Assembly (NCBI GenBank): GCA_050273025.1
Contig: CP158635.1
Coordinates: forward strand, 7,130,001 to 7,194,000
Direction: 5' to 3'
Source of the DNA: Cenococcum geophilum
Lineage: Eukaryota
DNA length: 64,000 nt
Shown: piece by piece, positions 1,450 through 63,903 of the stretch
How the letters are laid out: the number at the start of each line of letters is the position of its first letter
How positions within the stretch are numbered: position 1 is the stretch's first letter
The notes under the pieces: model-generated
Database searches by the model: none
Told to the model about the DNA's origin: nothing
Seen by the model: the letters and a program-made list of their open reading frames with translations, nothing else
Translations under genes and position numbers: made by a program

Positions 1450-2583
1450 CTTTACTAATGTTGCTTATATATTAAACGTAATAGAATTATATACCAATTA
1501 TTTAAGATCCTTAAGTAAAGATAAATTATTAATATTCGGCTCCCCACCGTTAAAAAATATATTAAGACGATGGTATCGACTACGCGCCTTTATTGGCACA
1601 CTATTATAGAACTTTTTCCATTTTCTTTCTCTATCTAAATTAGCTATAAATGCCTATACTAGGCGGGAAATGCGTTAATTTATAACTGGGGATTGTACTC
1701 CTACCTTATACTCATAAGTAGAAGAAGTGCTAGTCCCTAAAGAGAGTATAAAATCTAGTTAACCCTTATCTAGCTAGAGAAATTAGTATTTTTAAAAAGC
1801 GATAAAATAAGGATTATTAAACTTAAGGCCACCATCTTAGTAAGTGCTTAGGTTATTAAATACTTTAGGCTTAAAATATTATAGAGCTGTAGATATATAG
1901 AAAGCACTTCCCCAAGGCAGTTAATAGGAAACTTAAGTTAGGAAGGTAGGCTCTAGAGACTTACGCTTTACTAATTAATACGTTATACTTTAGTTGCTAA
2001 GCCTAAATAAGTTAATACCCTTAAGTTAATATTAGTAAAATCGGATAAATAAATACCTTTAACTTATATACCGCACTCCCAAGATCTTTATCCTTTATTA
2101 TAGTTTAATATTAAATAAGGTATTATTAGAGGCGCAGTTATTATCGTTACCGCGACCTTTATATTATTCTTTAGTAGATTAAATATTTTAGGAGAAATAC
2201 CTAGGCTCTGTTAGAACGCGCTCTTAATAGCAGATAAATTATACTAATAGTCTCTAATAAGAGCGCTAATAAGTCTTTAAATTTTTCTTATTAGGGAAAG
2301 GCGTCCTTCCTAATCTTATAGAAAAGTCTTTCTAGTAAGCTCCTTAAATCAACGGAGAGACTCTTAAAGATTATATAGTATAAAGTATATATTAATACTA
2401 ATTAGGCCGCCTTAAAAATATATTAGGAAATAAATTATCTAGCTAGTAACTAATATATACTAACTAAGGTCCCATAAATATAGTTAAAATAATCCTAGAG
2501 CGGGCAACTAAAATACTAAACTTGTTGCTTATATAATTAAGGAAAGTAAGAGGTATAACGCTATAAATACCGCCTCTATCTAT
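1450..2583 (-). pseudogene. Patatin-like phospholipase (Starship auxiliary-type PLP), 3' part
   Basis: Minus strand gives IDRGGIYSVIPLTFL (DGGGxRG), CPL*DYFNYIYGTLV/intron/GGLI (GTSxG) and STAL*YFKP...TY*DGG (SAAPxYF, DGG), with many RIP stops. Confidence 0.8.
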
Positions 2584-2854
2584 TATTATTATTATTAGTT
2601 CTATTTATTGCCCAATTCGGTCCCTTTTCAGGTCCATGTAGGCTACTACCTATCTATATAGGAAAAAAATCCCCTTAAGGGGGAAAAACCTAAGTATTTC
2701 CTTGCCGCTAGTAATACGCGTTCCGCCTTCGCCTAGCTAGTATATCTTTGTGTCTTTTGTCTGCCTTGCGTACCATACTTCCTAGGTATATCGGAAGATC
2801 TAGGGGGAGGGAGTGGTAGGAGGGTCTGGCGATTCGCCAGTGTGCCGCCTATGG

Positions 2855-3274
2855 CTAGGCGGGGGGTGACCAGTCTCTAAGGGGCTGGAGGGGGGCGTGT
2901 CCTATAGTGTCCTCCTGTTGGATCTTATGTGCAGTTTAGAACTGCTGGAGGACTCCTTATCCTATAAGCCATTTTGCTACTACTTGTAGGCCTCTGCTTA
3001 TAAAGAGCATCCAGTTAATATCATTTGTGCCTACGCTAGCGAGTAGCTAGTCCCTTGCTGAGCGGTGGCTGCAAAATAGTAGTATATAGCGTACTGTCTG
3101 AGCGGGCCATCCGCATATGCACTGAGGTGTGGTACTTAGGACATAGACGCCCGCGAGCCATGCGTTTAGGCCTAGGACCTCCGTCCGTAGTAGGAAGGCG
3201 GCTATAGACTCCGCTTTCGTTAGTCCTTCGTATAGGGGGAGAGTTGGTATTAACTATGGGGTGTTCCATGTGGC
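2855..3274 (-). pseudogene. C-terminal zinc-knuckle segment of Tad1-like LINE ORF2
   Basis: LYEGLTKAESIAAFLLRTEVLGLNAWLAGV...PQCICGWPAQTVRYILLFC...VAKWLIG*GVLQQF (CxCGxxxQTxxHxLxxC motif). Confidence 0.85.
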
Positions 3275-3562
3275 TAGAATACATTTGCATTGCAGAGCTA
3301 CGAGAGTTATATACAAAGTAGAGTTGCGGAGGCCCTCTTGCCCGGGCCCTCTACTATAGTTTTCCACTTCGGACGCCCCTTGACGTCTGTCTACTTCCAC
3401 AGCAGCCAGCCAGCTAAAACTAGCCACTGCCTATGTGTACCTGATTTGCTCCATAAGCCTATCCTTACAGCCTACTCTACCTAGATAAACCGACACGCAC
3501 GTCCGTCCTTTTAGGCTATACAGACAGTGTCGTCGATAAGGTGTTAATCCTTCCTCCGAGAT

Positions 3563-3776
3563 AGGTCCACCAGGAGTCAGAGCCTAGTAAAGGGGTGAGG
3601 TTCCTAGAGTCGTCCGTCACTGCCATTGTATACCACGCCCCACAGCCGTTACCAGCTGCTTCGCGTTACCTGTGACGCTCTCGCGACAATAGGCCGACCG
3701 TGTCTTGCAGGCGTGGGCCCATAATAACTCGACACCGCACAGCTATCGTCCCTCAGCCGCCTACTAACCAAACTTG
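3563..3776 (-). ncRNA. Candidate structured RNA motif, copy B
   Basis: Diverged repeat of 4623-4835 with conserved single-stranded blocks and compensatory stem changes (see findings). Confidence 0.55.
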
Positions 3777-3832
3777 TTGTCCTCCTATCTTAACCAACAC
3801 CTGCATCTAGGTCCGTTCCAGCCTACCTATAC

Positions 3833-3985
3833 AGGTTCGTCCTAGCTCTTTCTTAGTCCGTTCCGGATTAACGTCGCCGCCTAGAGAAAGGTTAACGCCG
3901 CTACGTTTATAGGTTCGTCCTAGCTCTTTCTTAGTCCGTTCTAGATTAACGTCACCGCCTAGAGAAAGGTTAACGCCGCTGCGTA
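3833..3985. repeat. Tandem duplication, 78-bp unit x2
   Basis: aggttcgtcctagctctttcttagtccgttc...agagaaaggttaacgccgct occurs at 3833 and 3911. Confidence 0.9.
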
Positions 3986-4622
3986 GAAAGGGCAGGTAGT
4001 TATATATTAGCTAATAATATAGTAGAGTTCAACATGCCTACTTATCTAGGCCTCTACCCCAGTTTTCTAGTACTTTAGTCCTAGTCTACAAGCAGTTAGC
4101 TGCTACCACCTAATACGGGGATTCTCACCAGTTCTTTCAGATATCTTATAACGGGATTAGCCCGAGTACTAGTCCGCCCCCCCGTGGTCTATATAAGAGT
4201 TTCCTCCTAGAGTTAGTACGCTTTCGCACGGCTTAAGAGCCTTCTATAGCCTCTAGTTTTACGCTTCTCTTTATTATTTCCGCCAGCACGGGCATAAGCT
4301 GCCATTTGCAGGGGTCGCAACTCCCATTTTACGCGCCTATTGGCGTAGTCCTACAAGGGCGTCGTGGCTGCATCCTGTAATGTAGCTAGGTATACCTTCT
4401 ACGGTTAAGGCTTAGCCAAAACCTCTCCCGCCTAAGTAACTCCTGTTTGCTCCTTAAGCGTACCTTACTAGCGTACTACCCTAGTGAGCAGCCGTACTGC
4501 CCTAGCGAGCAGCCGTACTGCCCTAGCGAGTAGTCCTATCTATTGGTACACCAACACGCGCATCCGTTCTCTCGAGCTACGTAGTAGTCTCTTTAGCTAG
4601 GACGTAATCCTATCTACCTACC

Positions 4623-4835
4623 AGGTACACTAGGGGTTAGAGCCTAGCTAAGGGGTAAGGTCCCTAGAGCCAGCAGTAGCTATTATATACTACGCCCCGC
4701 GGGCCTTTTAGTTCCCGTTTCGCGTTACCTATAAAAGTCTCCTTATAATAGGCCGACCGTGTCTTATAGGAGGGGGCCATAGACTAGGTCCCGTGCTAGG
4801 CGACCTGTTCCCCCCTCTCCTACTAACTAAGCTTG
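4623..4835 (-). ncRNA. Candidate structured RNA motif, copy A
   Basis: Diverged repeat of 3563-3776 with covarying stems. Confidence 0.55.
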
Positions 4836-5647
4836 TGTCCCCCCTTTTTATAAGCTGGCCTGTGTCTTTAACTGTTAAGGACCTCGTCCGACTGGCCTGT
4901 GTTTCCTTAGAGCCTCCCCCATATATATACGCGTTAGGTTGCGTGCACCACGCCTATTAAGACCCTCCTGTGAGTCGCCTGGTCGAACGCCATGGGGCCG
5001 TCGAAGCTGGCCTGTGTTTCCGCTGCCTAGAGCTTTGCCCGTGTTTCCACCTCGTCGAGCCATCTGGTCGCCGTCGCGTCGCCGTCGCGTCGCTGTCGCG
5101 TCTGTCGTCTAGGTCGCGCGCACCACGCCTATTAAGACCCTCTTCTGAGTCACCTAAGTGTTGGGTAGTACCAGATAGGCCCTTGTAGAGGGGCCTTAAT
5201 GAGTTTTCTAGGCAGGGCCTTAATAAGTTCTTCGCGGTGGCCTTGGGGCCTTAATAAGTTTCGTACGAGGTGCCTATAACGCGTTAACCTTAACAAGTTC
5301 TTATAAAAGGAGGTTCCCTACACCCTTGCCGCATCCCTTTGCGATCTTAGAGCTAGTGCAAGCCTAAGGGTGTCCTGTTGTACGCCTAGGGCGCGTCTAC
5401 GTCGACTGGCTATGATAAGACCAGTTTCGGGCCTGGCTACGAGCCAGGTAGTCGTACATCGGGTGGTTTTCGTATCCCAGTTTCCCTTGATAGGCCTCCC
5501 TAGGTGGTAGAGCAGGAGCCTTAAGCGGAGGCAGTAAGGCTCCTGGTGTTGTTGAGGGCGATGCTTTGGTACGCGTCGCGGGCTCAACACCACAGAACCG
5601 CGACGACAGCGCGTTGCATGCGCTGCGACGGCTCCCTACCATCGCCT

Positions 5648-5732
5648 CTGCACTTAGCCATCAAAAGGAACGAATTCCTGATGATGTTTCCACCCGCGGC
5701 GACGTGGACGCGTGCAGTAGGGCTTCGCGGGC
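5648..5732 (-). ncRNA. HDV-like self-cleaving ribozyme
   Basis: Minus strand: P1 GCCCGCG/CGCGGGU (G1-U wobble), J1/2 AAGCCCUA, P2 CUGCAC/GUGCAG, P3 GCG/CGC, L3 UCCACGU, P1.1 CC/GG, P4 CAUCA..AGGAA-UUCG-UUCCU..UGAUG, J4/2 GCUAA with the catalytic C. G1 is the first base of the element. Confidence 0.93.
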
Positions 5733-7200
5733 TACCGCCTCTATCTATGTAAAGAACATAAGTACTAGCTATAGGTGGAATAAATTAAAAGTTAGATGTT
5801 TTTTAAGGTACCCTATAAAATAAGTAAAAAGAAATCCGCAGTCGAAGACCTTCTTAGGTATTCTTATTAGACAGTAAAAGCAAGATTTATAGCTCTTAAA
5901 CAGCGCGAATTATAGCTAAAAATACTTAAGTCGTTAATAATATATAAGTAAGGCACTCTCTATAGCGGGCTATAATACCATTTTTATAAATAAGGCTTCT
6001 ATTTCCTCTTAAACGGCTAAAATAAATTTTTATTGCACATCTTTATAGATAGTATAATTAAAAATCGCGTTTCTGTAAGTATCTGCGAAAAGCGCATTAA
6101 AAATAAGCAATAGGAGGAAATCTACGCCGATTAGCTGAATAGTTAATTAGTATATTATACGACTCTTATAATAAAATCCTGGCGTATAACTTACTAGTAA
6201 TAAAGCAGAAGCAGTTAAAGGTACTACAAAATGCCATAGCTACGCCTGGCTTGGCATTTTACTAATTAATTCTTATAGATACTTTTAAAATTCTTACGCG
6301 GTAAATCCTTAAGGATAAGATAACTAAATAAAATAGAAAAAGGACTTATCTAAGTAAAATTGGTCTATTATAATTGTAGAAAGCGCCTTAAAATAGCGCA
6401 TATTAAAGAGAAATCTGTTATATTAGTAGGCCTATATAGCCTTAGTAAAGACTAAAAGAAGGCGTTTATGTAATACGAAGGAACGGACACTATAACTCCA
6501 TTTCTAATTTAATCTAAGGACTTAAATGCTATAGAAATGGGCACCTAAGTTTTTTTTAATTTTATTTTCCCGTTCGTATTCCTTAATACTTTTTATAACT
6601 ATTCTTATATTAGTTTAGAGCTTAGCCTCCGTAATAGACGGGTTAAATATAATAGATAAAGTATTAAGAACTATAAGTATATAAGGAAGAGTAGATTAAG
6701 GGAGGTTATATAGTAGAGGCTTAGTAGCTTAGTATACTAAATGCTTTAATATACCGTAAAGCCCGCTTAGGTTAGAAGCAAAATAATATATAATATTTAA
6801 AAGAGGAGCAAGGATATAAGCAGAAAGAGAATTTATAATTTCTTTCGCTAAGCAATGGCCTAATTGCAACTATTTAATCTATCTTACTATTTTATACCCA
6901 TTTTATAGGCTAGGTGCAAAATCTAATAAACTGTAATTATAGATCTTAGAGTTAATGTATATTAAAGGGCTATTATCTCTTTATATCTTTAAATTACTTT
7001 AAAGGTAGACCTAATAGTAGGAGCTTATTAAAGATAGATTGTTCTTCCTACTAAGGATTTGCCTAAGGAGCTTAGATTTAGTTTGTCTACCAATTAATAT
7101 AATAAAGGAAGGAGTTACGTTAGGCTTTAACAAAAGAAACCTAAAAGTATAACAATAAACTCTTAGTACGCTCTTACTCCTTATATAGGTAATCCTTATC
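5733..7200 (-). pseudogene. Patatin-like phospholipase, 5' part
   Basis: Reads ...FYLFYRVP*KTSNF*FIPPIASTYVLYIDRGG (CxxC...PPTAGxRVLxIDGGG) into the TSD. The upstream N-terminal region includes PSFIILIGRQTKSKLLRQIL. The start is approximate. Confidence 0.75.
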
Positions 7201-7776
7201 TAGGGTAGGTTGTTTATACTTAGGCGGAAAGAAATGTAATTAGTATTGGCTTAAGTTCTACTATTTAGCAGGGACTATCGGCTATTTATATTTCCGAAGT
7301 AGGCCTATTACGCTTATAATCCTAGCGCTCTGTTCCAAATTCTATATACGCCGGATCCGAAATCCGAAATCTAAAATCTAGAATCTAGAATTTAGCTTAG
7401 CGTAAGCCGGATCGGAAAAATAAAATGCGCGATTTAATATTTTAACCGTGCTCCTTACGTTAGGAAACCGAATTATAACTCTAGAGTTTAATTTCCCTAG
7501 AAAGTAGCAGCTATAGGCATTTTCTTTCTAAGCAAGAATATAGCGTTTTAACACCCTATACGAGGAGTAGGTATAAGGAAGGAATTTATACACATCATTC
7601 TTATATTATTTATATAAGCTTATAGGATTTCTGCTTCGCGCTTTATATCTTTAAAGCTCTTTACCTATTAATAATTACTACTACTTTAAAGCTCCTATAT
7701 AGGTTTCTACTTTAATAGGAAGTATCCTCACTATTTAAGTATAACTACTTACGGTCCTAATAATTAGTTATAAAGA

Positions 7777-8553
7777 ATATTGCTACTTAATCTGCCGAAT
7801 AAAATATTATTGTTAATAGCTAAAAACCTATAAGTAGAGGGAGATATTAACGCTTTCGCCCGGACAAATAACCGCCTTTATAATATTTTAAATCCCTACC
7901 TTTATCGCTATAACGTTGAATGGAAGGATAGCATAGTACTTATATAGGCTGCGAAACGAGGACAAGATATAACTGCTTAAAAATCTCTTAAAGCTGCTAA
8001 AATTGGAGTAGTAACTTAATATCAATACTACAGGCGTGCGGATTTATTATAGGCAGTAAAGAACGGATATAAATTGGTAGTATAGCTAATAATTAGAAGT
8101 AGACTTAGTAGTCTTAACCTAGAGGACTCTTCGCATGAGCTGTTATGCGCTATAAGGTTTAGGCAAACGGCAGTAGTGTAGCTACTTTTAGAAAGTGTTA
8201 ATGTGAACTATAAGTAGGGAAACGGCTAGATACTGCTATTATTAACCATAGAAAAGGGGTACAAAGATATAGTTTAACTACTTTTAGAATATAAAAATGT
8301 TTATATTAATATAAGAGACTGCTTTAGTCGGACACTACTATTATAGGTAGTCGATTATAAGTATAATATAGTAGTATAACTTCTAGTTAAGTATAGGGGT
8401 ATTAATATTAACTTAAAGGACTTTTTAGGTAGAACGCTATTATCCATAGCTAAAGTATATAGGGATGCTATAATAGTCTAACTGCTTTTAGAGTGCGAAA
8501 GTAATAGTCTAAAATCTATAGACTAGTATAATGATGCAAGCGGTCCTTTAATT
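7777..8553 (+). pseudogene. F-box-like plus ankyrin-repeat protein
   Basis: LLNLPNKILLLIAKNL...INAFARTNNRLYNILNPYLYRYNV...*AAKRGQ, followed by ankyrin repeats such as G*ILLLLTIEKGYKDIV*LLLEYKNVYINIRDCFSRTLL and INLKDFLGRTLLSIA. Confidence 0.75.
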
Positions 8554-10043
8554 TAATATTAAAGGATAGATAAAGATTAACCTAAAGGTAGTCTAGCTTT
8601 AGTATATAGATTAATTAGCAGGTCTATAGTTCTTAATAATATAATAAATATAAAATTCTATAGATTAGCTAACCCTTCTTCCCGCTAATTAATGCAATTA
8701 TTTCCTATATGCCTTAAGTAGATACTAGAAATGGTAAATTATACTAAACACTATCTATAAATAGGTTTATATCTCTATCTTATTAAATCCGGTCTTTTAA
8801 ATCTAGGCCTTTATAAAGCTAACGCTTTCTAGCTTTCCCCTCTATATAGTAGGCTTTAGGGGATAGGCTTTGTCGACGACACAAACCTAATTACATACGG
8901 GCCAACAGCCGCAGAAAATTGCAGAATACTAGAGAAAGCTTATAACACCTGTATAGAATGGGCAAGACGACATAGAGTCCAATTCTCACTAGAGAAATAC
9001 CAGCTAATCTACTTTATAAGAAAACGCAACCAATCTATAGATCTTTAGTATATAATCCGCATTTAAGGCTTTAGGGGTTAACCAGTTTAGGGTCTAAGGG
9101 TATTAGAAGTATAGGTAGACAGCAAGCTCCGGTGGAGCGCATATACAATATAAGCGGCCTATAAGGGCCAAGCACAGTACATCACATTATCCAGGATTGT
9201 TAATTCTATATAGGGTCCATGCTTCTAGAGGTCACGCCTACTATATATAGCAGTTGTCCGGCCAACCATAACATATAGGTCCAGTATTTAGGCCATTAGA
9301 GAATCTAAGAAAGGCCCCCCTAAATCGCTCCTTAAACTACTCTAAAAGGTCTAAATAGCCTGCCTTTAGAGTATAACAGGCGGATATAAGCAAACAGCCA
9401 CAGCACTGCTTAAAAAGGAAGCCAATATTCCCCCCCTATAACTATATATTAAAGCCGCTGTAATATAAAGGGCGCAAAATAAACGTAACTCTAATGTTAT
9501 AAAGTATATTAAGACACGCCTAAATAAACTATAGAGGGACCCTAGGGCGCCCTATAGGAGAATAAACCAACAACCCTAAAGTAGGGAAGATATATTAGAG
9601 AAATAGGTAAAGAAAGTAAAAGAAGAATAGTGCTGCTTTAGGGCCCAGGCCTATATAGAGAAGGAAGGGAGACGTATAAGAGGCTAGTAAAGATAATAGT
9701 AAGAGAGAGAAAGGAGCAAAAGTAGAGTATAAAAGAATGCTAGGAAACTATCTACCGCAATATAATACTGGCTGGACTAACGCTAGAGAGGTATATAGGA
9801 GTTAAAGGTACAGAGGCTAACTAAGGCAAGAGGAACCTAAGCCGTAGCATAGTTAACGCTATAGGGGGTAAATACTTTAGGGCTCCAAGAAGGCCTAACG
9901 AAGGCAGAAAATATAATGGTAATACTCTTAAGAATAGGAATAATAGGACTAAAAGACTGGCTCTACTGGGTAGGTGTCCTAGTAGGTAGCCTGAGATGCG
10001 AATGTAGCTAGCTAAGATAGACACCAAAATACGTAATACTGTT

Positions 10044-11476
10044 TTTTTTTTTTTTTTTTATATCCGTTGTATTATACTATGTACAATACTGCGCATGCAG
10101 CCTCTAGGCTATGGCGCTATAGTTCTATATACATGAATCCTTTCTAGGCAGCTTAATATGTACTAGTAGCTAAGTAGACACTCTGGCCCGTTTTTAAAAT
10201 GCTAGGGGAGCTCTAGCGACTGGTGTTTTTTCGTTCTGGTATTTTGCTTACTATGGTCCAGTTCACACCAAGAAAACTAAGGAAATCCTGGCTCTTTTAT
10301 CTATTTCTGCCGTATTCTGCCGTTCCTAGAGTAGAAAAAGCGCTCTAAAAGAATGATTTTTATTAAATAGTTTTGCACTTAAGAATAAGAGGCGTTACAA
10401 TAGCTTGCTAGCTTGGAAGCAGCTACTAATTACCCCTAAAGCGACTTTTTATCCTGTACCCTATCTCTTCTCCTTGCTAAAGAAATGGGTAGGGAATTAG
10501 TAATTAATAGCTACTCTCCCCAAAAGTAGGCTATTAATGGTATTTTATAAGGGCGAACCTCGTTACATAAACCTACTCCCATAGGAAAATTTTCACGAGG
10601 TTGTCTGTATAGGGTATAAACACCAATTCGCCTATACACCTTATATTTAACGTGCTAATGGTAACACGGGCCGGCCCCCTTCCCCTATCCCCATAGCTAC
10701 CCTAGCAGTGCATCGTCTGCGGTACGCCTACGGTGCGCCTACGGTACGCCTGCGGTCCTCTATAGTTTGATTGCCTATAGCGCGACAGCCGTAGACCGGT
10801 TGTAGTAGAGGTCGTCTACAGTATAACGGCTGTAGACTGGTTGTAGAAGGTCGTCTGCTCTGCAGCAGACTGGTTGTAGAGGAGGTCGTCTGCCCTACGG
10901 CAGACTGGTTGTAGAGGAGGTTGTCTGCCCTGCGGCAGACAGTTGTAGAGGAGGTCGTCTACCCTGCGGCAGACTGGTTGTAGAGGAGGTTGTCTGCCCT
11001 GCGGCAGACAGTTATAGAGGAGGTCGTCTACCCTGCGGCAGACTGGTTGTAGAGGAGGTCGTCTGCCCTGCGGCAGACTGGTTGTAGAGGAGGTCGTCTG
11101 CCCTGCGGCAGACTGGTTGTAGAGGAGGTCGTCTGCCCTGCGGCAGACTGGTTGTAGAGGAGGTCGTCTGCCCTGCGGCAGACTGGTTGTAGAGGAGGTC
11201 GTCTGCCCTGCGGCAGACAGTTGTAGAGGAGGTCGTCTGCCCTGCGGCAGACAGTTGTAGAGGGGGTCGTCTGCTCTGCGGCAGACTGGTTGTAGAGGAG
11301 GTCGTCTGCTCTGTGGCAGACTGGTTGTAGAGGAGGTCGTCTGCTCTGTGGCAGACTGGTTGTGGTGGAATCGTTGGTTGTGGTAGCTAGCGTCGTGGTG
11401 ACGTGTCTTTAGGGGGTATACAAACGGCGGCGCCCTAGCGACGACGGACGGAGGAGCAAAGGGGAGGCGACGGACC
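10044..11476 (-). mobile_element. Non-autonomous SINE-like retroelement with hairpin array, nested in LINE
   Basis: Poly(A) tail (T-run 10042-10059) and 13-bp TSD acgtaatactgtt at 10031-10043 and 11477-11489. The 3'-terminal ~110 bp match the 3' end of the LINE derivative at ~29848-29950. Confidence 0.85.
10795..11362. repeat. 35-bp tandem array (~16 units), each with a 7-bp stem hairpin
   Basis: Unit ggttgtagaggaggtcgtctgccctgcggcagact, containing the inverted repeat gtctgcc-ctgc-ggcagac. Confidence 0.95.
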
Positions 11477-12739
11477 ACGTAATACTGTTATGCCCCTTAT
11501 GCACCAACTAAGAAGCAATACTCTTAGTAGCTGGCACAGAGAACTATAATACACTACTCTTGATATAAAAAGGCCTTAAGGCGGTTACCTAGTGGCTTAT
11601 TAGCTAAAATGTACTAAACCAGTTCTAGGTTGTAAAGGAAATGATAATAGAGGGCGGGGGGGGGGGGGGCGGGCAACGGGCGCCCCCTGATGACTCTACA
11701 GTGGTAGAGTAAAGTTTACGATATTAGCGCGTCCGTAGGCTTGTTACGGCAGTAGTGGTTCCTAAGGAGGTTAAAAAGTAAGGTAGTAGAGCACTATAGG
11801 TAACTTATAGGCGCCTCGCAGGCGCCTTATAGGCGAGTCCTAAAAGGCGGGGAGATGGATTATGGGGTTTTCTTAAATAGAGTTTTCTCCCCACATGTAT
11901 ATAAGGAGTAGTCCGCGTGGGCCTAATAGGGATCCGAATTGGACGTTAAGCAATGAATAATAATAATAGTAGGCTTTTGCTTAACAATAGGTTTAAGCGC
12001 TTTAGTTATTAGCTTTCCCTATTATAAGGCCCTATTAACCCACTCTTTATAGAGTGCTTTCACTTTACCCTAAACTTGCTTTAATTGCCTAACTTTTTTT
12101 AGCCTTAACACCATTAAATAATTAAGGAAATACTTTATTTTTTTAGCTGTAATACTATAGCTTCTAAAGCCTTAACTTAGCTGCTACTTAATTGATTAAA
12201 GTGGCTTTAGAATAGTAGAATAGATATATAGAAATTTGCCAGCTCTGTTAAAGAAGGAGACTATAGAGTAGAGTCGTTTAATGCATAATTAATATCGCGA
12301 GTCTTATTAGGGTCATGATAGCGTAGGTCTAAGGCGTTAGATAATATATTTCTTAAGATAATTAAAGGCTTAAATCGATAAGTAGATAGAAGATATTAAG
12401 GCTTGCTAGTATACGTAATATATTACATATCGAAGTAATAGGCACGGCTATTTTATACTATATCTGCTAAGGACAACCTACTAAAAGACCTCTAGTTTTA
12501 CGTAAAAAAAATAAGCGCTGTATTATAAGCTAAGACAATTTGGCTTTTTAGACTAAAAGGATTAGTTATTTACTTTTTACGCAGCTTATTAAACGGATAT
12601 CGGAATTAAAAAACAGAAAACGGATTTTTAAATAGATACTTAAAGAGGCAAAGACTAGTTCTAAAATTACGCTAAGCCTCTTATTTTATTACTGCCATTA
12701 CTCTATAACGCAAAACACTTAAATAATACTAGCTTAAGA

Positions 12740-53615: not shown

Positions 53616-55910
53616 ATAGGGTATTAAATACACGGCCTTATAATATAAACTCCTAAGTAAAACCTTAGGTAGAAACCTAGTTATAAACCTAAGTAGAAAC
53701 TAAGCCATAAACCTAGGTAGAAGCCTAGATATAAACTAAGAAGTCTACCTACTTAACCTAAATATTTGGCTAAGTATTACTAAAAAGTCCGCGAAGATAT
53801 TTAGAGAGCTAAAGTAGTAAAGAAAAATTATTTACCCTTAACAACGAATAATATAAACGAGATTTTAGTCTAATATATAAGGTAAGGGTCCTCTAATTTA
53901 AGATAAAATTCTATAGCTTACCCTTTAGGTTCTATAAGAATATTAAAGACTATCCTATTTAACTTATTTAGAATACCTTAGGTAACAATATAAAGCTTTT
54001 TCTTAGATAGATTTTAGATAATTATTTATTACGGAAAAGGACTAGTATTTGATAGAAATTTAAATATTAGAGGCAGCTCTATTAAAGATACGCGGAAAAG
54101 GATTAGCTAGAAGGCCTTAGAGTGGAAATTAATAATATATAGAAATAGCTTTAAATATCTATAAAACCCGCTAATTATAATAGTATATTAATGGGCTATT
54201 AACTAAGGAGTACTAGCTTAACGCGACTATAAAAGAGAAACCAGTAATAAACGTTAACGATATTTTTTGTGTTTTATATTACTATTAGGCCCTAGATAAC
54301 TCTATATTTCTAAATAGGCAATAAATCCTATAACTTGCTCTTCTAATACTTATCTGTATATATATAGCAACTTAGCTAGGCGTATTAGTCTATATTAAGA
54401 GAAATATAAAAATAGTAACCAAATATACTCTTAAAAATTACAATAAGGATAGAGATATAGAAGGTAGTAAAAGTAATAGTGAAAATAGTAGTAAAGATAA
54501 CAGCGAAGATAATAATAAAGATAATAGAAAGGATGAAGAATTCTAGGACAAGATAGATATAGATTTAGATAGACCTATTAAGACTTTATGCTATAAATAT
54601 ATTACCCTTATTCTCCTTTAAAAGCCTAAGGCTAAGCAAGATCTTCTTACTATAGAGATTAATTTGCGGTTTACTAAAGGATATAAACGGAATTATAAAT
54701 GGTAAAGTTTACTTAAAAGCTTTTTCTTTAATAACTGCTAACCTAGATATGTAAGCCAGTATTCCAGTAAGCAGTTTTAATATTAGACGGGATTCGACCT
54801 TCAAATAAACCTCTACGCTACGATACCTTTCTCTACTATATTTAGCAACTAGGCTTTATAGCCGGAATAATATAGATCTTTAATCCCTATAATATTTAAT
54901 AAGGAGCTAGTAAGGTAGTTAATGCAATAGTAACCTAAGCTTAATTATAATAGGTTATAGGTTATATAGATGCTGGGACCTATTAGGCTTATATTAATAA
55001 GCGGATTTAATATAACGTGCAGGCCGCTTTCCTCGGACGCCCTTCTACTAATGCACTTTTTAAGTCCCTAACTTATGTTAGTTGGGATACCAACCTATAG
55101 GCTCCTAAAGCCATTACAAATCTAATAAACAATTCTCTTAAGACTTATCTACTTATTGTAGAGCTTTATTAGTGGCGCAATACCTTATCTAAAGTAGCTA
55201 GGGAACTATACGGGACTTTAAAAAATATATAAGTAGTTAGGAGTGAAGAGTATAAATTGTGTACGCAAGCTGTATTAGATTTAAAAAAATATAAGAAGAT
55301 CTTAAAAAGAGAGAAATAGAAGGAAATATAGCTTAATTTTTTTAATAAAATTAAGACCGAATATTTGAGACGATAACTTGCCCTATCGGCTATAGGTCTA
55401 AGTAAGGAAGAGTAAAAACTAGAACTAGTGAAGTATAGCTTAGAACGAAAACGTGTTACTAATCTCTTATATTAATACCGTTCTAAACTTATACTATAAG
55501 AGATGCTCTAATATTAAATTAATGTAATTAAAGCCTTACTTAATCTATACCGGGTACTAAAACCTATAGTTAAGTGTAAGGTTATCCGTAATTATAATTA
55601 GGGTATCCTTCCTACTCTAGAGCTAAGTCTAGAGCTAACGGTTAAACTTATACTGGGCCCTATAAAGATTACAAATCGATAGTATCTCTTCTACGCCTAT
55701 AAGATAGGAGTATATACCCTTTTCTATTGCCCGCGTAAAGTAAGGGAATACATTAAGATATAGCACCTTTCTTTTTTTAGATAGGATAAATCAATCCTAT
55801 ATCCTAACCTATATTATCGCTTATTAGGAATAATACTCTTTAGGTATAAGCATTTTAAAAACTATATATTTATAGTGTATAGCGCTTCTCTACTACCTTA
55901 TACTTTAGCT
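53616..55910 (+). pseudogene. Starship captain tyrosine recombinase (DUF3435) no. 2, divergent from no. 1, with a probable internal deletion
   Basis: YINGLLTKEY*LNATIKEKPVINVNDIFCVLYYY*ALD...LALLILICIYIAT*LGVLVY, KTLCYKYITLILL...IEINLRFTKGYK, NPYNI**GA, *VIGYIDAGTY*AYI, AAFLGRPS, and C-terminal KHFKNYIFIVY. Confidence 0.85.
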
Positions 55911-60522: not shown

Positions 60523-63500
60523 ATGGTGGGGTAAAATAGGCCACTGCTTAGTGCCTTAGCATATTCCTGTATTTATAGAGCCTTCGGCTTCCCTCCTTCT
60601 TGGATATCACGACCTACCGGAATACATTCTTTCCTTTCTTCTTACTGACTGCTTTCCTACTAATTGATTACGACTAACGACCGACCGACCAACCGACCGA
60701 CCAACCGACAGACAGACAGACAGCATTATAACTTCCTATCTAAGAGGGACCGCGTCCACCACCACACTAGTAGAATCCTATAGCGCCAATATAATAGATA
60801 TTAACTAGTAGGAGGTCTATATGTTTCTTTACAGATATTTATTAGGCCGTATTTTACGGTATAGAGTTTATAGTCTTCCTTAGCTTATATTCTATTTTCC
60901 GTAAATTATCCTTCTAGTTAATTAGTTTAGTATATTAACTAATATTCCTAGTCTTCCTTTAAGGCTATATAGTGCCTAAGTTCTCCCTTAGGGACTTAGC
61001 TAGGTTAAGTCCGCAACCTTTACGGATCTTAATAATACGGTGCGTTAGGCTAGGGCCTTAAGGACTATAGCAAGTCTGTTTAATAGGTTATCTTAAAATA
61101 TAGGGGTATCTCTAGTCTTAAGCAGTTCTTATAGCCGTTTAATATACAAAACAAAAAAGAGTAAAAAAAAAGGAGCTCTTGCTACACCCGGCCCAAAAAG
61201 ACTAAAACCAACTAAAAGAACCCTAAAAAACACCTAAAGAACCCCCCTAAGATATATACATCGCAGGGGAGGCACACGTCAAACGACGGTAGTTTATACT
61301 TAAGCGCGTCCACCAGAACCACGCCTAGTAATAGCCCTCTATAATAAGAACGGGCGAATACCACACTATAAAGCGGAAAGACCTTTATTAAGAAGGCATC
61401 TAATAAAATATAAAGCCTATTAGACGCGTTTAGTATCTGTAGTTATAGGGGAGTAACCGTTAGCTATAACAAACTAATACAGCTAGTAGAATGGCTCCGC
61501 CAGTCTAGTAAACCTTAGGCGCCCCTCTAGCAAACCCTTAATTAAATCCTCTAATGGCTAAGCAAAATTAAAAATAAATAAAACCCCTTCTTACTGGTAA
61601 ACCGCACCTAGGCCGCCGTAGCTGCGCTTTTATAGTATAGGGAACCTACCCCCCTAAAGATAATATCCGGGTATATAATTATAATATAACTAAATATAGA
61701 AAAAGCAGAGGGGCTTAGGGGATAATTAAAAATAGAAGTCCTTATAGAGATTTGTAAAGAGGTTTATAATACTATTATAGTCCAACACCTTAGGAGCGGA
61801 GATATTAGAGTTACCCTAAGGAACTAATAGGTAAAGGAATAGGCCATTAGGGTAGGGGACAGGCTAGGAGAACGTATTAGCATAAAGTGCTCCGCGAAGA
61901 TTACCTAGTTGAAGTCCTAGTGGTTCCCCTAAGCCTTAGGGTAGAAAAGGGACGCTAGGTAGATAATACAGCAACTATATATAAGATAGTAAAATAAATG
62001 GAACGCCTTATACTAGGACTTAAAATTACCTAAATCTAATAGCTTTAATAGGAAAATATAAACTAAGTATATAATAAAAATAATAAAAGAATATAAGGGT
62101 CGCTAGAGACTTACTAGGGAAACGCTAGTTAAATATTTAGCTCCCTTATTATTAGTATATATATACTAGAAATATAAAAACTCCTTATTTAAAAAGGTAT
62201 TATTATAAATAGCCTTATATATAACGTAAGGCTCTATAACTATAGACTCCGCCTAAAATAATACTATTGCTACGTATAGTAGGGACACACCTAATCCACA
62301 TACGTAGTATAGGTATGCTGCGGCTACTATATAGGCCCCTATAATATAAGATACTACTTAAATTAAGACTAAATAAAATGCGTAAACTGCCACTAAAGCA
62401 TATATAAGGCGTAGGAGAGAGAAGACTGTATTAAATACAGGAGACGGAAGGTAAGGGCTTAACAGCTACAGGAATAACTATATGCTAGGTTATATAAATA
62501 AAAATAATAGGCGATAAGCTAGGGGGGCGTAGGTGCCTTTCTAGCGTTTCCTACCTTTAATACTAGGGGGCTAGGCTAGCTATCCTAAGCCTTAACGGGC
62601 CAGAAGCGACGCCGCGCGATATTACTAGACTATATAGGGACATAAGGGTTATAGGGGACATAAGGGAGAGGACGCCCTATAGGAAGACCCTTATAAACAG
62701 CTATAGCAAGCTTAAGACTAGGACAATTAAAAATTAGACTTAACGCGGTAAATATAATATTTATAGCCAACTCTTAAAGGGTATATAGCCAACTAGTAAA
62801 AACAGGGGAAGAACTGAAAATAATAATAGATTTAGATATAGAAGCGCTAGTAGGAATATAAGATATAGGAATAGAAAGCTCTATATAAAATAAGTAGTAA
62901 CTAGGGTGTAGATATAAAAGATAGAAGTTCTAAATATTCTAGAGAAAGTAGAAATAGAAGAAGTAAGGAATAAAAAAGAGGCGAAGGACCCTCACCGGGG
63001 GTCCGCTACCTATCTATTATATAGTATAACTATAGCAATACAAACCACTGTTTTGTAAGGCCCTTACTAGACAGCCTAAACCTAGAGAAATACTATATCC
63101 TTGCTATATAAGAGCCGTATTATAATACCTATATATAATTAACATACTGCCCTTAAGGATTCCAGCTCTTATATAAACTAAAAGCAGCTATACGCGTGTG
63201 CTTTATAATTAGCAAGGCTATTAGCCTATCCTTATAATTATAGTAGGCAGTTAACCTAGATATTAGTATAGATTATTAATATATATAACCCTAGGGTTAA
63301 AGGGGTCCTATAAATAGAGAATATTATATTAGTAATAAGCCTACTAGAAACCAAAGGCATAGAGTTTATCCTATTAGGAGATATAAACCTCTACTACCCG
63401 CAGTAGAGGGGTATCTATATTGCTGCTAAATAATAGGTAGAGTGCCTACTAAGAGCTATAGACACCTAGGGCCTTAAGCTAGCTACCCCCCTAGGAGTAA

Positions 63501-63903
63501 TTATATAGTAATAAGGCACCGCCAGAAGTATAATTAACCTTACATTTATAGACGAAGGCCTATATTAGAGACTTAAAAGGTATAACCCTAAAAAAGAATA
63601 GGTACTTATTTTAAATTATATCCCTATCTAAATATTAAGGCGTAACTAAATAGTAAAAGATATATAATAAGAAAGCTTAAGATAAACAGCTTCCTTAACA
63701 TAGTTAAATAACAACTTTAAGACTTAGAAGAAATCTACCCAATATTAAACGAGCGAGGCTTATTGGCTACCCCTAAGGAAATTGACTAAAGACTAAAAAG
63801 GATCTAGGCAGCAATTAAAAACGGGCTAGAAGAGCACTACCCGGTCTTAAAACTGGGCCCCTATACGCGATACGCATAGTCTATATAATGCGCGGTTCGC
63901 CAG
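60523..63903 (+). mobile_element. Tad1-like LINE, 5' part (ORF1 and endonuclease)
   Basis: 5' UTR with an ACCG/ACAG microsatellite (60670-60722), ORF1 with CCHC knuckles ~62260-62440, and APE endonuclease LSII*YNYSN...ILAI*EPY...LLGDINLYYP. The left boundary is approximate. Confidence 0.85.

Follow-up and report, generated by a model that had tools for sequence, protein, structure and literature searches.

How a 3.1-kb insert that is mostly non-coding, and that ends in the manner of a long interspersed nuclear element (LINE), came to be copied into DNA, and why it begins on the very base at which a predicted ribozyme would cut, are questions raised by a 64,000-nucleotide stretch of Cenococcum geophilum DNA (assembly GCA_050273025.1, contig CP158635.1, forward-strand positions 7,130,001 to 7,194,000; hereafter the window). 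The insert is 3149 nt long and lies on the minus strand at exactly 2584–5732. Our analysis indicates that it is probably a ribozyme-processed, trans-mobilised, modular and non-autonomous retroelement of the non-LTR type (lacking long terminal repeats) with a LINE-derived 3′ end. An earlier sequence-only reading, made from the letters of the window, had proposed a ribozyme-headed, trans-mobilised non-coding element, and as far as sequence analysis reaches that proposal is supported.

The insert has a G+C content of 52%, versus 30–33% in the surrounding DNA. Read on the minus strand, the 16-mer ATAGATAGAGGCGGTA is present at 5748..5733 and again, matching at 16 of 16 positions, at 2583..2568, forming a target-site duplication (TSD); the 3′ border of the element is uncertain by at most 3 nt, as the first one to three bases of the TSD could equally be assigned to the tail. 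Because 63 of 8543 sampled 16-mers of the window reappear within 4.2 kb, the TSD carries weight only jointly with other marks. The tail is a TAA/TAT run of period 3 (5.7 copies, 2581–2597, Tandem Repeats Finder (TRF)) just before the 3′ TSD copy, and the 3.15-kb insert with a 16-bp TSD and a (TAA)n tail described in the sequence-only reading therefore stands. No second copy of the element is present inside the window. Dinucleotide indices of 2584–5732 (TpA/ApT 2.13; (CpA+TpG)/(ApC+GpT) 0.70) resemble, by the usual cut-offs, those left by repeat-induced point mutation (RIP).

Base 5732, the first of the element, is G1 of a complete double pseudoknot like that of hepatitis delta virus (HDV), as the sequence-only reading had claimed. 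In a local Rfam scan of 501 nt the full RF00094 (HDV_ribozyme) model, positions 1–89, aligned to 5641–5734, with model position 3 (equivalent to G1) falling on 5732, the base that directly follows the TSD, and with P1, P3 and P4 covered at full length; we take this model to have been built from hepatitis delta virus isolates. In a fold written by hand (element numbering), P1 joins 1–7 to 35–41 (7 bp, with G1·U41), P2 joins 16–21 to 80–85 (6 bp, lengthened by three pairs, 10–12/87–89) and in the window copy abuts P3 (22–24/32–34, 3 bp), L3 is UCCACGU and its C26C27 pairs with G42G43 to give P1.1, P4 is a regular hairpin (47–51/70–74 and 54–58/63–67) with a UUCG loop, and J4/2 is GCUAA, in which C76, the equivalent of C75, is the predicted catalytic cytosine. 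Checked on the sequence, P1, P1.1, P2, P3 and P4 form a nested double pseudoknot in canonical order. The nested minimum free energy (MFE) fold recovers P2 and P4, and covariance models built in this analysis score the region at 92–124 bits.

To what extent the ribozyme belongs to a family was addressed with a search in which an alignment of the tail of open reading frame 2 (ORF2) was run against metagenome contigs and gave 80 loci (designated by L-numbers), and with covariance models built stepwise from the window and its relatives. The final model, R3, gave eight ribozyme matches at 55–93 bits in the 539 kb searched, the next best match scoring 16.9 bits. Since L074, L075 and L077 represent one element with the same flank, the eight matches correspond to six distinct elements, i.e. 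the window copy and five relatives (L048 7295–10795, L048 18531–19542, L055, L007 and L074/75/77); the covariance-model search put forward with the sequence-only reading thus bore fruit. Specifically, L048 7295–8139 matches element nt 1–808 at 84% and starts on the same G, the whole of L048 7295–10795 is bounded by a perfect 15-bp TSD flush with G1 of its own ribozyme, and L048 18531–19542 (L048b, 1012 nt) has a 14-bp TSD that is likewise flush with G1. That other copies would start at G1 with TSDs of their own was therefore borne out by the two L048 elements. A clear TSD flush with G1 is present in three of the six distinct elements, and in these three TSD-bounded copies the position of the cleavage site is the first base of the element. 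L048b, which retains LINE-type 3′ UTR (untranslated region) motifs without ORF2 sequence, is the minimal form of this ribozyme-head/LINE-end design. The relative at L055 1131–3289 is 2.2 kb long; its ORF2 tail is still an open frame of 287 codons, and its 1.1-kb body contains no sense-strand open reading frame (ORF) of at least 80 aa.

Comparison of the six ribozymes revealed extensive covariation. In a register set by hand all 126 helix cells pair (21 positions in six sequences), at least two pair types occur at 20 of the 21 helix positions, and there are compensatory changes in all five pairings (P1, P2, P3, P4 and P1.1), including a double one in P1.1 of L048b, where CC/GG has become GU/AC. 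Both the C of J4/2 and L3 are conserved in 6/6 distinct ribozymes. At the base of P1 is a purine–pyrimidine pair, G1·U in 4/6 and G1–C in 2/6, with predicted cleavage 5′ of position 1. Descriptors of the HDV fold were too unspecific for use alone: a strict one gave three matches, two of them true, versus two in shuffled sequence, and a relaxed one 13 matches, five of them true, versus five in shuffles, the background being ~2–5 matches per 1.08 Mb searched.

Two further ribozyme candidates were rejected. L061 637–805 sits inside ORF1 and was lost with model R3, and window 55552–55640 (+ strand; R3 16.9 bits, E 0.42), conceivably a decayed ribozyme, is AT-rich, lacks collinear support and is probably noise. 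We note that L007 681–2370, after the ribozyme, holds a large inverted self-repeat together with reverse-oriented 3′ ends of other elements, and is therefore a nested or rearranged stretch. Elements with the second of the two body types described below (B-type; L032 ~279–400 and L078 ~8968–9090) start with GGAACAC and have a 9-bp long-range helix that recalls P2; these heads gave no Rfam ribozyme match and the order of their parts is unlike that of HDV; the B-type head may be a divergent or decayed one.

At the other end of the element, LINE homology is limited to element nt 2459–2875 (window 3274–2858, 417 nt; tblastn and ORF2 profile), a stretch with four in-frame stops that corresponds to profile positions 978–1111 of 1112. 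With this ORF2 remnant as the sole part of the profile present, and with no match to ORF1, the element is not an autonomous LINE; the 417 nt plus a 274-nt 3′ UTR agree with the claim that the LINE-derived part comprises only the last ~420 nt of ORF2 and the 3′ UTR. A 68-aa ORF near the 3′ end led to 30 proteins, four of which are full-length ORF2 proteins with RVT_1 and Exo_endo_phos_2 domains; by tblastn the remnant is 81% identical to protein P0001 and 41–47% identical to the four full-length ORF2 proteins. The last 686 nt are 93% identical (blastn) to a LINE copy in L001, the 3′ UTR at 96% and the ORF2 remnant at 91%. The suspected LINE with the same 3′ end was thus found in part, this copy sharing the end and being 5′-truncated.

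The last ~110 nt contain a stem-loop common to four ribozyme elements and to ten further rows, LINE 3′ ends, of alignment A7, for which (14 3′ ends, including those of four loci with full-length ORF2) 13 pairs are predicted, seven with compensatory changes. We consider the stem-loop the likely recognition tag for the LINE enzyme. The point at which ORF2 starts differs among the ribozyme elements (profile positions 721, 843, 908 and 978), and identity of the tails to P0001 ranges over 48–81%, indicating that the tails come from different LINE lineages.

Between ribozyme and tail lies a body that the sequence-only reading had described as devoid of recognisable reverse transcriptase or gag. Indeed, none of the 17 minus-strand ORFs of at least 40 aa in the interior reached the Pfam cut-off. 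The LINE relatives have, besides ORF2, a separate ORF1 of 472–540 aa; these ORF1 proteins from full-length LINE loci gave no tblastn match (E ≤0.01), a profile of 13 ORF1 proteins reached at best E 1.1 in six-frame translations of the eight ribozyme-bearing sequences, and the ORF2 profile matched only tails. Codon periodicity does not discriminate here, being seen neither in the body nor in the ORF2 tail used as a positive control; the differences are mostly transitions.

The body is made of two modules. The A body is 82–84% identical to L048 7295–8139 and L007 3750–2371, and it ends at a fixed 3′ boundary (...AACTACCTGCC) before sequences that differ among the window, L048, L040, L043 and L021. 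After this boundary the window continues with the B module, L048 and L040 continue with ORF2 from profile position ~908, L043 is 52 nt shorter and in L021 ORF2 starts at q806; predicted protein P0004 likewise spans an A-body/tail junction. The B module has 81–88% identity to the L032 units, three in tandem, and 88% to L078 9510–9897, where it stands beside another tail than in the window; in predicted protein P0030 the junction between a B body and ORF2 lies 36 codons upstream of its place in the window. The B-type body is of different origin from the A-type body, and the exact combination of A, B and tail was seen in no other locus. In L032 718–2966 the three tandem B units (element nt 1741–2325) adjoin a 5′-truncated LINE of another lineage.

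The interior was also said to be rich in hairpins and repeats, and here the claim can be made specific. The repeats comprise a 78-nt tandem, a 21-nt tandem, two 46-nt copies that are 89% identical to one another, in a region of variable repeat number (L048 has three places matching this repeat, 7876–7923, 8084–8129 and 9226–9271), and two ~160-nt segments that are 72% alike. A structured domain of ~115–160 nt, present twice in the window element and also in L007, L048, L055, L078, L032 and L075, consists of two covarying hairpins, one of them capped by a GAGA loop, set among invariant blocks; copy A also has an ACGC/GCGU helix and an inner hairpin. For alignment A6 (nine copies of the domain) RNAalifold predicts 29 pairs, nine with compensatory changes. 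No Rfam match at E ≤1 was found in the body, the domain included, and the domain is a candidate new RNA motif. A 900-nt stretch of body folds with z −2.87, a value matched by none of 20 shuffles. Four spaced motifs like CTTGTTAAG and CTTATTAAGGCC occur at window ~5170–5300 (−) and at L055 1495–1690, in bodies that otherwise diverge; they could bind proteins or form an RNA motif. The features of the element are collected in Table 1.

Table 1. Parts of the ribozyme-headed element and its target-site duplication, in window coordinates.
Feature	Position	Strand	Basis
5′ TSD copy, 16 bp	5733..5748	−	identical 16-mer at 2568–2583
HDV-like self-cleaving ribozyme (predicted)	5644..5732	−	G1 = 5732; RF00094 alignment, own models, covariation
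A-type non-coding body, element nt 90–1740	3993..5643	−	82–84% identity to L048, L007
Two 46-nt repeat copies, 175 nt apart	4935..5155	−	element 578–623 and 753–798
Structured RNA domain, copy A	4623..4781	−	alignment A6, nine copies
B-type body, element nt 1741–2458	3275..3992	−	81–88% identity to L032, 88% to L078
78-nt tandem repeat, 1.9 copies	3833..3984	−	TRF 94% matches; blastn 92%
Structured RNA domain, copy B	3563..3719	−	72% identity to copy A
LINE ORF2 remnant, last ~137 codons, C-terminal Cys/His motif region	2858..3274	−	tblastn, ORF2 profile
LINE-type 3′ UTR with conserved terminal stem-loop at ~2610–2643	2598..2857	−	96% identity to L001 3′ UTR
(TAA)n tail	2584..2597	−	TRF; LINE loci in alignment A7 carry the same tail
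3′ TSD copy	2568..2583	−	16-mer match

Elsewhere in the window there are degraded, AT-rich LINE relics at 8860–10080 (+), 11465–11971 (+) and 63010–63628 (+), comprising reverse transcriptase/ORF2 pieces with 37–41% identity to full-length ORF2s, a fragment of an endonuclease and a tail relic. The tail relic, 11465–11971, resembles the element's own 3′ end, is detectable only in a purine/pyrimidine alphabet, and was the sole feature above the reversed control (154 vs 87) when the window was searched in that alphabet for RIP-degraded copies. At 10816–11487 (−) an open frame of 223 aa that consists of a recurring unit of ~20 aa (TTSSTTSLPQGRRPPLQPVCRR...) lies in a G+C-rich island with strong GC skew.

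Parts of the element were matched in 20 listed sequencing runs from 13 studies, and four of these runs were aligned at 90% identity or above. In X1 (DNA contigs) 7085 pieces aligned, with differences amounting to 228 transitions vs 7 transversions; summed word depth per bin, which is not copy number, was 30,526–123,084 over the A body (3921–5792), 2,467–8,175 over 2751–3920 and, for the outer flank bins, 364 and 1,311. The same pattern is seen in X6 (DNA contigs; 4307 pieces). The element family is clearly highly repeated, the A-type module being abundant and the B-type module rarer. RNA was found as well. In X21 (raw reads from RNA sequencing) 266 reads aligned, 210 of them 90–95% alike, covering 3336–5792 with a depth peak at the 46-nt repeat region; the tail bins have almost none (one 0.32), the outer flank bins none. 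The 578 pieces from X15 (metatranscriptome contigs) fall on this part too. First mates in X21 map almost only to the plus strand, so this RNA is the sense strand of the element if the library follows the usual convention, as we assume.

How these parts would work together can be proposed from their anatomy. The element would be transcribed within a longer RNA, and the ribozyme would cut just 5′ of G1 and so remove upstream sequence. There would follow the non-coding body of ~2.4 kb, with its A and B modules each carrying a copy of the base-paired RNA domain, and then the 3′ end, in which the dead ORF2 tail, the 3′ UTR stem-loop and (UAA)n would be recognised by the reverse transcriptase/endonuclease of a related autonomous LINE. 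Target-primed reverse transcription would copy the RNA up to its cleaved 5′ end, which would account for the start of DNA copies exactly at G1, beside the TSD. The fixed A boundary, taken together with tails of several LINE lineages, suggests that tails were probably acquired repeatedly, most simply through template switching by a reverse transcriptase from LINE RNA to body RNA; a boundary that is fixed on the body side and variable on the LINE side is the pattern that would be expected of switching to a body RNA at its 3′ end. It is possible, although we do not lean towards it, that the ribozyme and A body are no LINE fragment but constitute an independent, abundant non-coding RNA, its 5′ end cut by the ribozyme and its 3′ end defined, that was repeatedly fused to LINE 3′ ends in this way.

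Several observations weigh against a ribozyme-processed, trans-mobilised element, as does the restriction on summed depth given above. The RF00094 alignment, at 27 bits (E 0.067 for 501 nt), falls short of the gathering score of 50, and at gathering thresholds no Rfam family matched the element. The MFE of the ribozyme alone is unremarkable (z −0.99). In alignment A4, 92.1% of cells pair vs 66.7% in shuffles (0/500 reach it), both sides change in 14/20 pairs and slid controls give 33–47%, but the alignment had been fitted to the model, and such fitting favours pairing counts; moreover, substitutions between copies are mostly transitions, and C-to-U changes keep G·U pairs without selection. The ribozyme of L074/75/77 has an irregular P3, and no clear TSD was found for L055, L007 or L074/75/77, half of the distinct elements. 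With regard to transcripts, X21 shows no pile of read starts at 5732, the depth of only ~2.6 being too low for ends, and since most of its reads are 90–95% alike they come from other copies.

Elements of this general kind are already known. The short internally deleted elements (SIDEs) of R2 in Drosophila, including R2/R1 hybrid SIDEs, are non-autonomous elements that start with an HDV-like ribozyme and whose LINE 3′ end serves target-primed reverse transcription; in a hybrid SIDE the ribozyme is from one source and the tail from another LINE, for which template jumps have been invoked (PMC3414825). NARTc, RIME and SIDER of trypanosomatids share the 5′-terminal HDV-like Pr77/L1TcRz of their LINE (PMC3185411, PMC3383444, PMC4035085), with the cleavage site, as here, at the first base of the element, and some metazoan LINEs and short interspersed nuclear elements (SINEs) also use HDV-like ribozymes (review, PMC6765202). 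R2 SIDEs and the window element share the ribozyme 5′ end, the LINE 3′ end and non-autonomy; R2 SIDEs, however, are short, lie in ribosomal DNA and derive from R2 by internal deletion (PMC3414825), whereas the window element is 3.1 kb long, has a long conserved non-coding body and is dispersed in AT-rich repeat DNA, with no ribozyme-bearing parent found among the sampled LINEs. In trypanosomatids the first 77 nt of the LINE itself form the ribozyme and double as a promoter, whereas that of our element was found on no sampled LINE. What is new in this element, then, is the long conserved non-coding body, the swapped LINE tails, its probably fungal host range and the lack of a ribozyme-bearing parent among those LINEs.

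These precedents give the best-surviving alternative, that the element is a SIDE-type LINE changed by internal deletion or rearrangement, in which ribozyme and body would be the 5′ end and 5′ UTR of the partner LINE itself and nothing would be borrowed. R2 SIDEs and NARTc did arise by such deletion (PMC3414825, PMC3383444), and L001 and L004, the nearest LINE copies, are truncated at the 5′ end, so that the ribozyme could be that LINE's own, a further point that tells against our interpretation. We nevertheless consider this origin unlikely. In none of 17 loci with full-length ORF2 did R3 or the two descriptors find a sense-strand ribozyme upstream of that frame, these loci being distant relatives (tails 36–50% identical to P0001) of which only five extend more than 500 nt upstream of ORF1, and the three longest of the LINE upstream regions contained no ribozyme family in local Rfam scans. 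Body sequence is shared with no full-length LINE locus, tails of at least three LINE lineages follow the same A body at the same 3′ boundary, and L048b combines the ribozyme with a 3′ UTR motif in the absence of any ORF2 sequence.

Less probable still is that the HDV-like fold lacks catalytic activity or has lost it, and that the G1 end was set by chance or by the start site of an internal promoter, as proposed for Pr77/L1Tc. The sub-threshold Rfam score would fit such a fold, and the four CTTGTTAAG-like motifs that the body has in common with L055 could bind factors. Compensatory changes in five pairings, even in the 2-bp P1.1, and the unvarying J4/2 C and L3 argue otherwise, as does the start of three TSD-bounded copies on the exact base against so low a descriptor background; in addition, fungal HDV variants cleave in vitro (PMC5640933). 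The remaining alternative, a one-off chimera or assembly artefact without a family, which could appeal to the single copy in the window and the unique combination of modules, is already contradicted by the relatives in several metagenome contigs and by run coverage (thousands of contig pieces at 90% identity or above in two DNA runs; 13 studies), and also by the perfect TSD and by P0030 and P0004, which span other body/tail junctions.

If the element is trans-mobilised and ribozyme-headed, it still has to be placed among other non-autonomous families. Classical SINEs and SVA elements share a layout of head, body and LINE-derived tail, variable internal repeats, mobilisation in trans and exchange of tails; relative to classical SINEs, our element has a ribozyme in place of the RNA polymerase III (Pol III)-type head. 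It lacks the Pol III head of a SINE in the strict sense (tRNA, 5S and 7SL models of Rfam gave no match and ARAGORN 0 genes), and at 3149 nt it exceeds the few hundred nt of such a SINE. The label "retrozyme-like" used in the sequence-only reading did not survive. Retrozymes and SINE-like elements with hammerhead or twister ribozymes are, like our element, non-autonomous retroelements with a small self-cleaving ribozyme, but their motifs are often in repeats and their intermediates are circular RNAs (PMC7761336, PMC7229834, PMC8501958). Rfam scans of our element detected neither a hammerhead nor a twister motif, nothing suggests circles, and R2 SIDEs and NARTc are closer.

Fungal HDV-class ribozymes have been reported before. 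Li and Breaker (2017) described 230 variant HDV ribozymes from 26 fungal species with "widely variable gene associations", demonstrated cleavage for two variants and stated no role, and the word retrotransposon does not occur in the text of the paper (PMC5640933). In their consensus the pair at the cleavage site is C–G, P4 contains an E-loop and an additional base separates P2 from P3 (PMC5640933), whereas the window copy has G·U, a plain P4 with UUCG and no extra base; L055 shares one of these features, having an extra C between P2 and P3. In the literature searched, which took in few subscription journals, we found no account that connects HDV-class ribozymes of fungi with non-LTR elements, and the premise of the sequence-only reading that HDV-like ribozymes occur on fungal LINE RNAs was not confirmed there.

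Taken together, our findings point to a family that is probably fungal. If the ribozyme and A body are indeed an independent RNA that was fused to LINE ends, fungi would have a class of "ribozyme-headed SINEs": a self-cleaving RNA would stand at the head in place of a Pol III promoter, and the conserved structured domain, which Rfam lacks, would serve some step of the element's cycle. Were this general, it would explain the hundreds of copies of HDV-class ribozymes with variable neighbours in fungal genomes. Fungi are, to our knowledge, usually described as poor in SINE-like elements. The design of ribozyme head and LINE tail, known from insects and trypanosomes, would gain a third eukaryotic group, and the family would provide natural material on how LINE enzymes choose 3′ ends and how frequently templates are switched. 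A transcribed family of high copy number would provide fungal HDV-class ribozymes with a concrete function and with a life cycle that can be tested.

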